Shown here piece by piece: positions 17,472 through 22,217 of a stretch of DNA of 32,542 nt. Origin of the DNA: Candidatus Woesearchaeota archaeon. Its GTDB lineage: Archaea; Nanobdellota; Nanobdellia; Woesearchaeales; WJIZ01. A model generated the notes under the pieces. It worked only from the letters and a program-made list of their open reading frames with translations. It was not told the origin of the DNA and ran no database searches. The number at the start of each line of letters is the position of its first letter. The stretch's first letter is position 1. The DNA lies in the NCBI GenBank assembly GCA_018303575.1, contig JAGVXW010000026.1:1-32542 (forward strand), written 5' to 3'. Made by a program: the position numbers and the translations under genes.

Positions 17472-17787
17472 GCGGGACAGGCACTTAGCTAACGGATGGA
17501 AACATCTGAGGAAAGTCCGCCCTCCCCTCGAAAGAGGACAAAGCCACCCTTTGGGATCCGGCAACGGATGGCAACCGCACAGAAACGAGACCCCCTCGGT
17601 CTAGGATGAGGCACGCGAAGGTTCCGGCAACGGAACTCAGTTAACCTGCCGACGTTGTCCGAGGAATGGCTAAAACGGCGAGCCCTGGCTGGAGCAAGTC
17701 ATTCGACGCTTAGTTCAATGCTAAGGAGGCCATCGAAGCACTCGCTTGGTAACGGGCCTTACAGAAGGCGGCTTATCCCTGTCCTGC
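17472..17787 (+). ncRNA. rnpB: RNase P RNA (archaeal type)
   Basis: P1 pairs GCGGGACAGG (17472..17481) with CCTGTCCTGC (17778..17787). The universally conserved GAGGAAAGTCCG is near the 5' end and ACAGAAGGCGGCTTA near the 3' end. Overlapping ORFs on the minus strand have no coding features. Confidence 0.85.
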
Positions 17788-17834: not shown

Positions 17835-18896
17835 ATGCCTATTGAAGATGGAGGAGCGGCGGTAAGCTTCCGAAACGACAAGGACCTCTATAGCGCATAT
17901 CAGAGTGGGCGGGCTCCTGCTGGCGTGACCGCGATGCGGCTGTTTTCCGCGATCCACAACAAGGGAAGCCCGCAGGAAGCTTTGGAGTTCGCATTTGGGG
18001 CTGATGTCCTTCCCCTCTACCTTGCCATCTGGGAAGCGAGCGGCCTCAAGCTGGGGTTTGTCCCTGGGAACATAGTCTTTGCGCAATCGAGGGAGGGGCA
18101 GACACGATTCGGACCTCCAGAGATTCTCCGGGAGCGCGTGCGATTACGGATGGAAGCGCTCGCCCAGACGCCGAAGGAGCATGGGCAGCTTGCGGACGCG
18201 TATGTGCGGACCGGCCTTGAGCAAGAAGCTATTCCACACTACGAACGCGCGTTCAGATTACAGGATTGCGCCACGCTCGCAAGAAGGAAAGGAGATCTGC
18301 CTCTTGCCGCTGCCTACGCAAGAGATCATGCCCAGAATACAAGGCAGGAAGCGGACTATCGCTGGGCTGGGGGATTGGAGGAGGAGGCGGGGAATTTCGA
18401 CGGCGCCTGGGGACTGTACCATATGGGCATGGCACCGGTGGACGCGCTCCGCGCGAAAGCCAGAGCTCTCCATGCTTCGGGAAGGGCCGAGGATGCTGTC
18501 TCCGTCTATCGCGACGGCCTTAAGGCATTCGTGGCTGTCGGGATGGCCGAACATGATAAACAAACCAGGAACGTCCCTTGCAAGCTTAGGTCGTCAGTAC
18601 CCGGCGCCGAGGTGCTCACCTTCCTCCTTTGGCTCAGCGGCAAAGAGCCAGAACCGAAAGTGGAGAGGAGGACATGCCCTGACCTGGCTGAAATCGTGTA
18701 TCGTCTGATCTGGGGAGAGGCCGAGGTGGCGAGTAAGCATAGCCTTCCACAGGTATACGAGTTCCTTGCCGTGGAGTCACAGCGGTACCGGGAAGCGGCC
18801 AAGCGGACGAAGCGAAATCCGGTCGAAAAAATTCTTGATTGGATGCGGGAGCGGCTGGGGCTCAGGCATCCGCCGCTCTACGCCGTGGGGCGGTAG
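17835..18896 (+). CDS. Hypothetical protein with TPR-like helical repeats
   Basis: 353-aa ORF. TATA-like GTTTATAAGAT lies about 27 nt upstream. The central region (LADAYVRTGLEQEAIPHYERAF..., GNFDGAWGLYHMG..., GRAEDAVSVYRDGLKAF) resembles TPR helices. By eye it is more GC-rich than its neighbours. Confidence 0.5.
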   Translation: MPIEDGGAAVSFRNDKDLYSAYQSGRAPAGVTAMRLFSAIHNKGSPQEALEFAFGADVLPLYLAIWEASGLKLGFVPGNIVFAQSREGQTRFGPPEILRERVRLRMEALAQTPKEHGQLADAYVRTGLEQEAIPHYERAFRLQDCATLARRKGDLPLAAAYARDHAQNTRQEADYRWAGGLEEEAGNFDGAWGLYHMGMAPVDALRAKARALHASGRAEDAVSVYRDGLKAFVAVGMAEHDKQTRNVPCKLRSSVPGAEVLTFLLWLSGKEPEPKVERRTCPDLAEIVYRLIWGEAEVASKHSLPQVYEFLAVESQRYREAAKRTKRNPVEKILDWMRERLGLRHPPLYAVGR

Positions 18897-19456: not shown

Positions 19457-19792
19457 TCACTTGCTCTTCGCGATCTCAAAGAGCGACTTAATCGCGACGA
19501 TGCCAGCCGCGGGGCCGACGAACGTCACGACATTCTGCAGCATGTTGCGCACGACTTCCATAGGCACGACCAGCGCGAGGCTTGAAGCGCTCACGACGAA
19601 CGCCACGGACGCGAGCAGGAAGTTGTGGGTCTCGTGGCCCGCGACATTGAGCAGCCCGACTACCAGCCCCAAGAACGCCAGGAGCCAAACAAGAGTAGGC
19701 CCCGCCGCGCTCACGAACCCGGCAATCACCGCAACCACAAGGCCGACGATAAACGCCCATCGGCCGATCAGTTCCATGTTCATTGCTGCCAT
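19457..19792 (-). CDS. Small integral membrane protein (3-4 TM)
   Basis: 111-aa ORF that is almost entirely hydrophobic helices (WAFIVGLVVAVIAGFV, LVWLLAFLGLVVGLL, FLLASVAFVVSASSLALVV). An oligo-T tract follows the stop on the minus strand. Confidence 0.6.
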   Translation of the reverse strand: MAAMNMELIGRWAFIVGLVVAVIAGFVSAAGPTLVWLLAFLGLVVGLLNVAGHETHNFLLASVAFVVSASSLALVVPMEVVRNMLQNVVTFVGPAAGIVAIKSLFEIAKSK

Positions 19793-19905: not shown

Positions 19906-19959
19906 ATACCGAAATTATTAAATACATATACCTTTTAGATACCTTTTTAATACCTCTAG
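19906..19959 (+). promoter_or_regulatory. Helically phased ATACC iterons overlapping the promoter of the 19973..21999 cassette
   Basis: ATACC occurs at 19906, 19928, 19939 and 19950 (spacings 22, 11, 11). The last three lie in tandem 11-bp units ATACCTTTTAG / ATACCTTTTTA / ATACCTCTAG. TATA-like TTTTTAATA is embedded about 25 nt upstream of the ATG at 19973. Confidence 0.5.
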
Positions 19960-19972
19960 ATGCAGGAAGCAC

Positions 19973-20110
19973 ATGAAAGTCGAGCTGACAGATGTTGACG
20001 AGGTTATAGACGCGCGCGTGGAGGGCTACAAGACGAGCACGCGCGTGAGCGTGCCGAAGAAGTACGCGAACAGGCGCGTAAAAATCGTCATCCTTAAAGA
20101 TGAAAGCTGA
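19973..20110 (+). CDS. 45-aa protein resembling the small archaeal DUF2080 / AbrB-like DNA-binding fold (below the ORF-track cutoff)
   Basis: My translation is MKVELTDVDEVIDARVEGYKTSTRVSVPKKYANRRVKIVILKDES*. The pattern ...V.K.V...G.S..V.VPK.W.GK.V.VIL is what I remember for DUF2080-type proteins. Its stop overlaps the next gene by 11 nt. Confidence 0.45.
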   Translation: MKVELTDVDEVIDARVEGYKTSTRVSVPKKYANRRVKIVILKDES

Positions 20111-20429
20111 CTCCCATCTGGGCATCGCCGCGGAACTGCTAAAAACGTTCGCGCTCGTAGACGAGCCGAAGCTGCTGCTGGCTTGCGTCGAGGAAGTGCG
20201 GAAGGCGCTCCGGGCAGCGGGCATCCGTCCGGAACTGGCCAGGACGCTTGACCGCATCCTCTCAAAGCACCGGGAGAGCCCGATGGAGTTTTCACGGAGC
20301 GGGAAGCTGATTATAGCCGACGACAGATTCCTGCTGGAGACGCTGGACGGCGCCAAGATCGCGGCATTCATCGAAGAAGCACGGAGGGAAATCGGAACGC
20401 ATGGAAGAGAGCTACTTACAGGCCGTTGA
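20100..20429 (+). CDS. Hypothetical helical protein (cassette gene 2)
   Basis: 109-aa ORF overlapping both neighbours. No motif recognised. Confidence 0.5.
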   Translation: MKADSHLGIAAELLKTFALVDEPKLLLACVEEVRKALRAAGIRPELARTLDRILSKHRESPMEFSRSGKLIIADDRFLLETLDGAKIAAFIEEARREIGTHGRELLTGR

Positions 20430-20856
20430 GGAGTTCAAGCGGCTGGACCATTTGTATTACGTTACCTTAAAATACACCCGTACCGTAGATGTGATCCGGG
20501 CGACGCTGGAGCGCATCATCTCGACGCACGAGCACGCGGTCGAGGCGCTGCTGAAATGCCTCAAGCAGGAGAAGAAGGTGACTGAGATTCCGGCGAGCCC
20601 GGTCGCAAGGGCGCAGCTGCTGATGCAGCATCTCTCCGACCCTCGCTTGGTGCAGTTCCTGGAGCTGTACCTCAAGCTCAGGGCAGTGATGCGGCAGCCC
20701 TATGAGAAAAAAGAGGAATACCGGAGGCATGTGACGATGATCGTGCAGTTCGAGGGCGAGACGCTGAATATCGACATCGACAAGCTCAAGGAATACTTTG
20801 ACAACACGGGCGAGCTGCTCAGGCATGTGAAGCAGCGCGTCCTGGAGTGCAAATGA
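20401..20856 (+). CDS. Hypothetical helical protein (cassette gene 3)
   Basis: 151-aa ORF overlapping both the previous and the next gene. It appears all-helical (LDHLYYVTLKYTRTVDVIRATLERIISTHEHAVEALL...). Confidence 0.55.
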   Translation: MEESYLQAVEEFKRLDHLYYVTLKYTRTVDVIRATLERIISTHEHAVEALLKCLKQEKKVTEIPASPVARAQLLMQHLSDPRLVQFLELYLKLRAVMRQPYEKKEEYRRHVTMIVQFEGETLNIDIDKLKEYFDNTGELLRHVKQRVLECK

Positions 20857-21524
20857 CGCGCATCTTGCATATCACAGGCCACGCCGGAGCGGGCAAGAGC
20901 ATAGTGGCTGTCAACCTGGCCGCCGCGTTCCAGAAGCAGGGGAAGAAGACCTTCCTTGTTGACGGCAACCTCTATTCTCCTGCGGTGGCCCATTACTGCG
21001 GCATAGACTTCCAGACGTGCATCAATGATTATCTTGAGGGCAAGGCGACGCTTGAAGAGATTTCGCATTTACATTCGTCAGGGCTGACCATCCTTCCTGC
21101 TGCGCCCCAGGAGCACGAGGCGGATCTTGAGGCGCTCAACAAAGCTTTGCTTATGCTCACGGGCAGGGCGGACATCGTTGTTGTGGACAGCTTCTCCCAT
21201 GCGCCGCTGGTGGCGCACGTTATAGATGCTGCGGATGAGAGCGTCTTCGTCACGCATGACGATTTCCACAGCGTGCTCTCAAGCCGCGATCTTATCCGGC
21301 ATCTCGAGGCGAAAGGGGCAAATATTGTTGGAGTTGTGGTGAACAGGAAGCGGGCGAAGAGCAACAGCCGGCACATCCAGACGATCCTCGGAAAGACTAT
21401 CCTCGCGGAGCTCCCGCACGACGAGCGCATGGTCGACTACGCTGACGACGGCAAGATCGCCTGCCTGCACACGAAAGCGGGGGCCGCCGGGGCGCTGCTT
21501 GAGCTCGCGAAGACGATCGGATAG
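20847..21524 (+). CDS. MinD/ParA-family P-loop ATPase with a non-canonical deviant Walker A
   Basis: 225-aa ORF. ILHITGHAGAGKSIVAVNLA aligns with the family GKGGVGKT, but His replaces the signature Lys. DIVVVDS fits Walker B, and VGVVVNR fits the family's C-terminal pattern. Confidence 0.8.
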   Translation: MQMTRILHITGHAGAGKSIVAVNLAAAFQKQGKKTFLVDGNLYSPAVAHYCGIDFQTCINDYLEGKATLEEISHLHSSGLTILPAAPQEHEADLEALNKALLMLTGRADIVVVDSFSHAPLVAHVIDAADESVFVTHDDFHSVLSSRDLIRHLEAKGANIVGVVVNRKRAKSNSRHIQTILGKTILAELPHDERMVDYADDGKIACLHTKAGAAGALLELAKTIG

Positions 21525-21531
21525 GCTCACG

Positions 21532-21999
21532 ATGCACTGGAGCCAAAAAGAGGTGGAGAAGGCGGCGAAGATCGTCGCCCGCGCTGAGAAGAAAAAGAGC
21601 GGCTCGCTCCGGCTGCTTGACGAGACCGTGCATTGGCTGCTGCTGCTCGTCGTTCTTTTAGGAAACCTGATTCTTGCGGGATTCCTGGTCCTTGTGAGCG
21701 ACATTCTCGACGCTTTTTTCCTTACAACTGTCTTGATTTTGGGCCTCGCGTTCGGCTGGCTGGTCGAGATGCCCCTGCGCGATTTGGAGAAGCTGGACAA
21801 GCACAAGCATTTCCTGTCGCGAGTGCTGCTTCCCTTGCTCGCTCTTGTGAATGTCTATCTTATAATAGGCCTGAAGCGGATGGCCGAGATTTCTTTGGGC
21901 AAGACGCTCGAGTTCAACGCGCTTCTCGCCGGAATTGTCTATGGAGTTGCGTTCCTGATGCCGCATCTGTGGTACCATCTGAAGAAACGAGTTCAATAA
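21532..21999 (+). CDS. Membrane protein, about 4 TM (cassette gene 5)
   Basis: The ORF opens at 21499, but the ATG at 21532 (MHWSQKEVEKAAK...) follows the ATPase stop (21524) without overlap. TM helices include WLLLLVVLLGNLILAGFLVLV, FFLTTVLILGLAFGWLV, LLPLLALVNVYLIIGL and LLAGIVYGVAFLM. Confidence 0.55.
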   Translation: MHWSQKEVEKAAKIVARAEKKKSGSLRLLDETVHWLLLLVVLLGNLILAGFLVLVSDILDAFFLTTVLILGLAFGWLVEMPLRDLEKLDKHKHFLSRVLLPLLALVNVYLIIGLKRMAEISLGKTLEFNALLAGIVYGVAFLMPHLWYHLKKRVQ

Positions 22000-22034: not shown

Positions 22035-22121
22035 CCCACGAGCTTTTTGCCAAAACCTCGGAAAATGCGCTTAAGTGGGGTTTTACAAACCCCACGAATC
22101 TGCAGAATAACTGAAAAAGAG

Positions 22122-22217
22122 GGTGGCTACCGGGATTTGAACCCGGAATCACAGGATTGCTATGGCGCATCGCGCCGCCACAGTCCCGTATGTTGACCAG
22201 GTTACACCATAGCCACC
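22122..22217 (-). tRNA. tRNA-His (anticodon GTG) with encoded G-1 and a 20-nt intron (plus-strand 22158..22177) at position 37/38
   Basis: The reverse complement reads G-1, GTGGCTA/TG/GTGT-loop-ACAT/A/CGGGA-CTGTGG[CGGCGCGATGCGCCATAGCA]A-TCCTG/TGATT/CCGGG-TTCAAAT-CCCGG/TAGCCAC-C. G-1 opposite C73 is the His identity feature. On the minus strand TTTATATA lies about 25-30 nt upstream. Confidence 0.85.

Follow-up and report, generated by a model that had tools for sequence, protein, structure and literature searches.

A DUF2080 gene with a phased ATACC array at the head of a lysine-less MinD operon in a woesearchaeote: a candidate portable, autoregulated promoter module

The DNA analyzed here, a contig of 32,542 nucleotides (nt) from a Candidatus Woesearchaeota archaeon (hereafter the window), carries on its forward strand a cassette of five genes preceded by a short array of ATACC repeats. 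The genes encode a DUF2080-family protein of 45 amino acids (aa) (19973-20110, +), a 109-aa protein that belongs to a family of otherwise ∼160-aa proteins (p157; 20100-20429, +), a 151-aa HEPN-like helical protein (p151; 20401-20856, +), a 223-aa MinD-derived P-loop ATPase (20853-21524, +), and a 155-aa protein with four transmembrane (TM) segments (the 4-TM protein; 21532-21999, +). A first-pass annotation, made from the sequence alone, had described the five genes as one tight unit and suspected a chromosomal positioning or segregation-like module, by comparison with systems of ParA/MinD/SegA-type ATPases and centromere-like repeat arrays; the gene order of related contigs, in which the five genes are syntenic, agrees with the first of these statements. 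The overlaps of 11 and 29 nt and the 7-nt gap between the ATPase and 4-TM genes stand as first described, but the supposed 10-nt overlap does not: as all homologues of the ATPase begin with MTRI(L/I)H, its start is the ATG at 20853 and not the GTG at 20847, and this ATG overlaps the stop codon of p151 by 4 nt (ATGA).

A direct check of the sequence confirmed ATACC on the plus strand at 19906, 19928, 19939, and 19950, with spacings of 22, 11, and 11 bp. Three of these sites (19928, 19939, and 19950; 19928..19954, +) are in exact 11-bp phasing and are proposed here as the operator of the DUF2080 promoter, and a distal site (19906..19910, +) lies 22 bp upstream of this array; Tandem Repeats Finder reports the region as an 11-bp tandem of 2.5 copies (19928-19955). 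In relatives the array is preceded by a TTTATATA/TTTAAATA box, the counterpart of which in the alignment is the TATA-like sequence ATTAAATA (19917-19924, +), a candidate for the TATA box of this promoter; a second candidate, TTTTTAATA (19944-19952, +), lies inside the array with its centre ∼25 nt before the ATG and would give a leaderless mRNA. The pattern TACC-N7-TACC has two matches in the 32.5-kb window, both at the array, against an expectation of 0.12 (2 of 100 shuffles equal that count), whereas the inverted pattern TACC-N7-GGTA does not occur in the window. Further arrays, the search for which had been proposed, were sought in the window, where this one is the only array. The significance of the array is modest within the window alone, and strong once comparative data are included.

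These comparative data come from 90 related Woesearchaeal loci (693 kb), the open reading frames (ORFs) of which were classified by hidden Markov models built from the syntenic genes. A DUF2080 gene is found at the front of the cassette in nine of them, representing seven distinct lineages, and always together with a MinD. All seven lineages (the window and six others) have three to five (A/C)TACC sites, or their complement, phased at 10-12 bp, so that the phasing noted in the window is a conserved feature; in the relatives the array follows the TTTATATA/TTTAAATA box, its last site is 5-8 nt before the ATG, and the sequence of the spacers varies freely. Across the 693 kb, three or more ATACC sites at 10-12 bp are found solely before DUF2080 genes, and the syntenic MinD loci without DUF2080 have no phased ATACC array. 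The sole phased array without a nearby DUF2080 gene consists of three TTTACC copies at 11-bp spacing just downstream of the TM gene of another locus (L086:3558-3580, −); given that its motif differs from ATACC, this array is probably due to chance.

A metagenome scan with the DUF2080 alignment recovered 30 loci, most of them without the cassette. In ∼24 low-GC (guanine plus cytosine) metagenome contigs (L093-L118, e.g., L094:2960-5411; median GC 34%), a 43-45-aa DUF2080 homologue with 49-62% identity, in which the TSTR...PKKWA motifs are kept, lies 5 nt upstream of a gene for the AAA+ protein Cdc48/VCP, and no MinD is encoded nearby at these loci. Their promoters share one fixed geometry, in which the TATA box is at −34 and the centres of the TACC/GGTA sites fall at −26.5, −15.5, and −4.5, and as the TATA centre is ∼26 nt before the ATG, promoters of this type would give leaderless mRNAs. 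Some of the DUF2080-linked cdc48 genes (at least that of L096) contain an intein bearing a LAGLIDADG domain. Among 30 distinct DUF2080 upstream regions, 23 have a phased chain of at least three sites, and 27 if a degenerate middle site is allowed; the orientation of the sites can flip (TACC or GGTA), and the spacing is kept. The array is thus tied to the DUF2080 gene and not to the ATPase, and its presence at the cdc48 loci, together with its absence from the syntenic MinD loci without DUF2080, indicates that it is a cis-element of the DUF2080 gene's own promoter, which moves with the gene into unrelated operons. The same two facts, absence from MinD loci without DUF2080 and presence before DUF2080 genes that head cdc48, run counter to the earlier suggestion that the repeats are the centromere of the ATPase operon.

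The 45-aa protein scores above the cutoff of both Pfam PF09853 (22.6 bits; cutoff 21.5) and NCBIfam NF033496 (25.5 bits; cutoff 22), and PF09853 is matched by all 22 of its aligned relatives (best E-value 9.8e-8). Across the seven lineages, 18 of its 45 columns are invariant, including Y19, TSTR, and PKKYA, and the ratio of nonsynonymous to synonymous substitution rates (dN/dS) is 0.06-0.33, so that the ORF is real and conserved, as had been supposed. For all five genes of the cassette, dN/dS in comparison with two relatives is well below 1 (0.06-0.14 for the ribosomal protein S13, used as control), indicating purifying selection. The protein is basic and has invariant Arg/Lys-rich loops, and its TSTR...PKK(Y/W)A residues, which are invariant, are found together with a TACC core that is likewise invariant; a distant DUF2080 protein in L119 has no TSTR and no array. 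We propose that the 45-aa protein is a sequence-specific autoregulator. Its single-chain AlphaFold2 (AF2) model (predicted local distance difference test, pLDDT, 75.5) has a beta-loop-short helix-beta arrangement, and PDB profile searches with the DUF2080 alignments returned nothing significant. Downstream of DUF2080 genes we find Cdc48 or cassette genes; a transposase, as the name of the family would suggest, is not among the called neighbours in L001, L003, and L006, and a scan of viral contigs for this type of DUF2080 found nothing. The DUF2080 homologue of L091 precedes a secreted-type beta-helix/Big_7 protein, and AATAC direct repeats at 11 bp are present further upstream of it.

The Walker A motif of the ATPase reads GHAGAGKS and has no signature lysine, in accordance with the initial reading. 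Its assignment to a positioning family also holds, with that family being MinD and not ParA/SegA: the best NCBIfam model is minD_arch (TIGR01969; 79.1 bits, far below the cutoff of 201.75), against 28.7 bits for ParA_partition, and the best full-length PDB matches are the archaeal MinDs 1ION, 1G3Q, and 1HYQ, with no ParA, Soj, or SegA structure among the matches at E ≤ 1e-5. A syntenic ortholog in L007 (L007:5447-6226) reaches 244.3 bits on minD_arch, above the cutoff, and has both KGGVGKT and a C-terminal amphipathic helix. Bona fide archaeal MinD (above the TIGR01969 cutoff in L007) is thus encoded at a fixed locus in Woesearchaeota, where 24 other syntenic MinD loci also have the lysine; a preprint of 2020 describes MinD-like genes as limited to the Euryarchaeota (10.1101/2020.04.03.021790).

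The loss of the lysine is not an error but a fixed trait of all MinDs linked to DUF2080. Their P-loops read GHAGAGKS, GTSGSGKS, GNAGSGKS, GPGGTGKS, and GNSGSGKS, with H, T, N, or P, and never lysine, at the signature position, whereas syntenic MinDs without DUF2080 retain GK(G/S)G[VTA]GKT in every case with a readable P-loop. All DUF2080-linked MinDs also lack the C-terminal amphipathic helix: the window protein ends in ...LLELAKTIG right after the core fold, whereas many lysine-containing syntenic orthologs end in ...LFKSILLKIGLRK-type helices. In further changes shared by the clade, GKT is replaced by GKS, and both switches are remodelled, TT being replaced by YS in switch I and (A/G)GL by FSH in switch II (DSFSH in the window), the last of which replaces the DxxG glycine; NPE has become (H/N)DD (HDD in the window), and two basic residues, K155 and R168, are new. 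In contrast, the GK of Walker A (G14 and K15) and the aspartates of Walker A' (D37) and Walker B (D112) are invariant in the alignment, and dN/dS of the gene is 0.09-0.13. As these residues and purifying selection are kept, the ATPase is probably still a nucleotide-binding switch, and its contact with the membrane, if any, would be through partner proteins.

Three other affiliations of the ATPase were considered and rejected. An apparent RecA-like N-terminus had its score summed over the repeats of a RecA fusion, each domain reaching 10.9 bits, which is not significant. Kinship with BY-kinases, suggested by matches to EpsG, CapB, and VpsO, does not fit because the protein has no C-terminal tyrosine cluster and MinD scores higher. 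An analogy with GET3/Get1, prompted by the neighbouring Sec61beta and NAC genes, was dropped since MinD is missing from two thirds of the loci and is not known to have the client-binding subdomain of Get3.

The 151-aa protein is the most conserved component of the cassette, with dN/dS of 0.04-0.07, as constrained as S13. In its AF2 model (pLDDT 90.4), a helical bundle is followed by a three-stranded sheet and then by a C-terminal helix, and the best Foldseek matches are HepT/HEPN proteins (template modelling scores 0.55-0.62, E-values 0.05-0.5; none at E ≤ 0.001), whereas a PDB profile search gave only noise (TAF1, E-value 0.16). Residues R14-x2-H17, LKYTRTVD, and E106-x-RRH are invariant. Relatives of p151 were found in at least 595 genomes in a scan of one genome per Genome Taxonomy Database (GTDB) species, and in 484 clusters at 50% identity in a profile search of 1.84 billion representatives. 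Compared with the p157 family alignment, the 109-aa protein is a truncated member, missing the N-terminus and ∼45 central residues, and its dN/dS (0.25-0.41) is the highest of the five; a homology search with this protein found two relatives only, and the family was revealed through the syntenic loci. By sequence, p157 and p151 are paralogs (hhalign probability 96.6%, E-value 5.9e-10, over the full length). The catalytic Rx4-6H motif of HEPN proteins is absent from both. Upstream of p151 in one of the more distant Woesearchaeotes, a 61-aa ORF (L004:4710-4895) has the N-terminal ADH helix fused to the C-terminal helix; it looks like a remnant of p157, and thus a second independent truncation of that paralog.

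Hydropathy and charge distribution give the 155-aa protein four hydrophobic segments and place its basic residues at the N-terminus, in loop 2, and at the C-terminus. It has a basic N-terminal cytoplasmic helix, and its family alignment shows the conserved cytoplasmic loop RDLEKLDKHKH and conserved polar residues in the TM helices; dN/dS of the gene is 0.13-0.22. When every member of the p151, p157, and TM families was scanned against Pfam, no family was identified, and only sub-threshold matches recurred, to HEPN_AbiU2 for p157 and to E1-E2_ATPase and DUF2070 for the TM protein.

Across the 90 loci, p151 is followed by the TM protein, directly or after MinD, in 84, p157 lies upstream in 62, and in 33 the gene of a MinD-type ATPase comes after p151 and before the TM gene. 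The ancient core is therefore composed of two paralogous HEPN-like proteins and a 4-TM membrane protein, and the idea that the small proteins are adaptors specific to an ATPase cassette does not hold: the p151-TM pair occurs in the genomes of at least 595 species, and an ATPase is missing from the majority of the loci sampled. The position of the cassette is identical in every related contig, GyrA - THUMP methyltransferase - Sec61beta - NAC - cassette - S13 operon, with no mobile-element genes among the called neighbours; this is a chromosomal housekeeping neighbourhood. The nearest relatives of the ATPase and of p151 come from metagenome-assembled genomes labelled Nanoarchaeota or Woesearchaeota. 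We regard the five genes as a genuine operon on the chromosome of a Woesearchaeote, a DPANN archaeon, that is conserved and inherited vertically. The loci with DUF2080 are monophyletic in the p151 tree, and their sister clade has no MinD at all; this topology points to the loss of the lysine as a single, fixed, and selected event, and places it in a lineage where MinD was otherwise being lost.

Taken together, we consider it probable, though well short of certain, that the region is an operon with a decayed MinD, in which DUF2080 and the array act as a portable autoregulated promoter module, the array being an operator and not a centromere. According to this model, a conserved membrane-associated operon acquired at its front a gene for a 45-aa DUF2080 protein, together with that gene's own promoter, with sites that fill the space from the TATA box to the start codon at one per helical turn. 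Oligomers of the DUF2080 protein would bind the ATACC sites on one face of the DNA, and the bound protein would block TFB or RNA polymerase and so autoregulate the operon, as repressors of the AbrB/MazE type and of archaea do; the archaeal repressors MDR1, LrpA, and Phr bind the interval between the TATA box and the transcription start site and block recruitment of RNA polymerase. Binding of the DUF2080 protein to DNA is suggested by the exclusive linkage of array and gene, by the basic loops that co-occur with the TACC core, and by a layout that, as for AbrB, tolerates changes of orientation but is strict in spacing. The downstream proteins may form a membrane-associated complex, which the tight gene overlaps would fit, and the MinD derivative, having no membrane anchor of its own, would rely on p151, p109 (the 109-aa protein), or the TM protein.

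Several observations weigh against this model. The DUF2080 family has no demonstrated DNA-binding activity, and its validated role is that of an antitoxin domain (the NetFlax antitoxin; PMC10440598). An AbrB-like fold of the 45-aa protein is not demonstrated, as its single-chain model has no significant structural neighbour (no Foldseek match with E < 3), and the only related fragment with a solved structure, the C-terminal domain of CalpT (CalpT10), is a weak match (E-value 0.48), the homology of CalpT and DUF2080 having itself been described as weak. A close DUF2080 homologue with 61% identity (L091:3001-4447) has no TACC array, and in the window a 14-nt insertion places the array further from the ATG than in its relatives. 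Finally, the lysine-less MinD, the array, and DUF2080 go back to one joint origin, and because of this single origin their co-occurrence in the cassette cannot tell an operator apart from a function linked to the ATPase; that distinction can be drawn solely from the copies linked to cdc48.

The evidence bears differently on the other explanations of the locus. Chance, or a purely structural role of the repeats as phased A/T tracts or curved promoter DNA with no specific binding protein, seems scarcely credible: the T-rich spacers of the window and the modest significance within it would fit, but the TACC core is conserved across lineages while spacers vary freely, and phased arrays of at least three ATACC sites are confined to DUF2080 promoters in 693 kb. 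A greater, though still minor, chance falls to the array being read by another factor, such as a dedicated transcription factor or a TFB/TBP variant, with the 45-aa protein as a protein-binding adaptor that is merely the first gene of the regulated unit. The known contexts of DUF2080, the C-terminal part of the anti-sigma factor CalpT and the NetFlax antitoxin, are ones of protein-protein contact, the searches above give no structural support for a DNA-binding fold, and the position of the small gene, 5 nt before cdc48 and overlapping the next gene in the cassette, could mark a cofactor of the downstream proteins. Self-recognition nevertheless remains the simplest explanation of an array that moves with the small gene between the MinD cassette and cdc48 and is absent from homologous operons without it; the invariant Arg/Lys-rich loops of this basic protein point the same way, and one cofactor for two machines as unrelated as Cdc48 and the MinD/HEPN-like/TM proteins would be less parsimonious.

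A segregation or positioning module akin to par loci, with DUF2080 as the centromere-binding protein, ATACC as centromere-plus-operator, the ATPase as motor, the helical proteins as adaptors, and the TM protein as anchor, is improbable in our view. Type Ib and type II par loci and the pNOB8 AspA-ParB-ParA system have iterons in the operon promoter and a binding protein that autoregulates, which is the layout seen here; one clade shows a perfect co-occurrence of DUF2080, the array, and the modified ATPase, translation of the genes is coupled, and McdA shows that a ParA without the lysine can form ATP sandwich dimers. However, the ATPase derives from archaeal MinD and not from ParA/SegA, the identical array and small gene head cdc48 with no ParA or MinD nearby, p151 and the TM protein are a near-universal chromosomal pair mostly sampled without an ATPase, and the perfect co-occurrence reflects a single evolutionary event. 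There is moreover only one array in 32.5 kb, and the replaced switch II glycine and the variable signature residue (H/T/N/P) suggest a sandwich-dimer chemistry that was relaxed rather than re-engineered. More improbable still is a toxin-antitoxin or defence-like module, in which the HEPN-like proteins would be the toxins and DUF2080 would serve both as antitoxin and as autorepressor. The antitoxin role of DUF2080 in NetFlax (PMC10440598), the structural proximity of p151 to HepT toxins, and the weak HEPN_AbiU2 matches of p157 members have to be set against the missing Rx4-6H motif in both paralogs, their near-universal and syntenic occurrence under constraint like that of a ribosomal protein, the 81 of 90 loci that have HEPN-like proteins without DUF2080, the presence of DUF2080 before cdc48, and the lack of mobile-element neighbours.

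Going beyond the autoregulated promoter module, one may speculate that the HEPN-like paralogs and the 4-TM protein, with MinD where present, form a so far undescribed membrane-anchored complex that is near-universal in the Woesearchaeota. In the clade of the window, MinD would have turned from a membrane-binding oscillator of the ATP-sandwich type into a lysine-less switch tethered by its partners, and the unit would have been placed under the control of a DUF2080 autoregulator, with cdc48 subject to an operator of the same type. We consider this wider scenario doubtful; if true, it would tie the cassette into a small DPANN regulon for the cell cycle or for proteostasis. Hitherto DUF2080 was known only as a "transposon-associated" domain, as an antitoxin domain, and from its weak similarity to an anti-sigma factor in the C-terminal part of the latter. 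The locus supplies a concrete candidate DNA target for it, namely ATACC/GGTAT sites with 11-bp phasing that lie downstream of the TATA box and upstream of the start codon and are conserved in two operon contexts unrelated to each other. The ATPases represent a natural archaeal MinD lineage without the lysine, the switch II glycine, or the membrane-targeting helix, yet under purifying selection, which complements the precedent of McdA and should help to work out what the signature lysine is needed for. Hundreds of Woesearchaeal genomes carry the conserved gene set of two HEPN-like paralogs and a 4-TM protein, some with and some without MinD, at one fixed position in a housekeeping neighbourhood; this set is a sensible target for DPANN cell biology.

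The remainder of the window includes an archaeal RNase P RNA, a tRNA that probably contains an intron, Sec61beta, NAC, and the cluster S13-S4-S11-RpoD-L18e-L13-S9-RpoN. The RNase P RNA (17473-17786, +; RF00373, 127.5 bits) is followed just downstream by a gene for a 353-aa tetratricopeptide repeat protein (17835-18896). Between NAC and the cassette lies a minus-strand gene for a 111-aa hydrophobic protein (19457-19792, −), at the position of which the relatives encode different minus-strand genes, namely an inositol phosphatase (L001), a 108-aa protein (L003), and a 319-aa protein (L006). In the four DUF2080-bearing lineages examined, the cassette and the NAC transcription unit have a gene of opposite orientation between them, whereas in lineages without DUF2080 the first cassette gene directly follows NAC. 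Between the cassette and the S13 operon is a 96-nt tRNA gene (22121-22216, −; Rfam tRNA, 50.8 bits), for which ARAGORN could assign no anticodon, hence the probable intron.

Among known systems, type Ib par loci, SegAB, and pNOB8 AspA-ParB-ParA share with the cassette a small first gene, direct repeats in the promoter, and a Walker-type ATPase in one operon. They differ in that the ATPase here is derived from MinD, the same module heads cdc48, and the supposed adaptors are ancient chromosomal genes mostly found without an ATPase; despite the par-like layout, the reading of the region as a par locus is mostly unsupported, and the region reveals no new DNA-segregation system. With HEPN proteins (HepT/DUF86 toxins; 7BXO, 5YEP, and 4NQF), p151 has in common a similar helical bundle, at the weak Foldseek E-values given above, and p157 a weak match to HEPN_AbiU2, but unlike these toxins p151 has a three-stranded sheet inserted before its last helix and the conservation and synteny of a housekeeping protein, and it has neither the Rx4-6H motif nor an MNT partner. 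As for the autoregulators AbrB, MazE, and SpoVT, the first gene encodes a small basic protein and short motifs about one helical turn apart overlap the promoter, with either orientation tolerated. AbrB binds pairs of TGGNA in tandem or inverted arrangement (PMC3025583), with spacers of 4-5 bp, as opposed to ATACC at 11 bp; the promoter here is of the archaeal TATA/TFB type, and the swapped-hairpin fold is not demonstrated for DUF2080.

The closest relative of the ATPase is archaeal MinD (TIGR01969; 1ION, 1G3Q, and 1HYQ; Haloferax MinD4), which is its best-scoring family and best full-length PDB match and with which it shares the GK of Walker A and the aspartates of Walker A' and Walker B. It is set apart by a His in place of the signature lysine, GKS, DSFSH, HDD, the missing membrane-targeting helix, and the location of its gene between HEPN-like and 4-TM genes, without MinC or MinE. 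ParA-type ATPases without the lysine are already known from McdA, the carboxysome-positioning ParA, which has Ser/Thr in place of the signature lysine, is still functional, and compensates by a conserved distal lysine, K151 (PMC6582323). Like McdA, the window ATPase belongs to the ParA/MinD class and has no signature lysine; McdA, however, is of the ParA lineage and works with McdB, whereas the window protein is of the MinD lineage, has no McdB-like partner, and carries the clade-specific basic residues K155 and R168.

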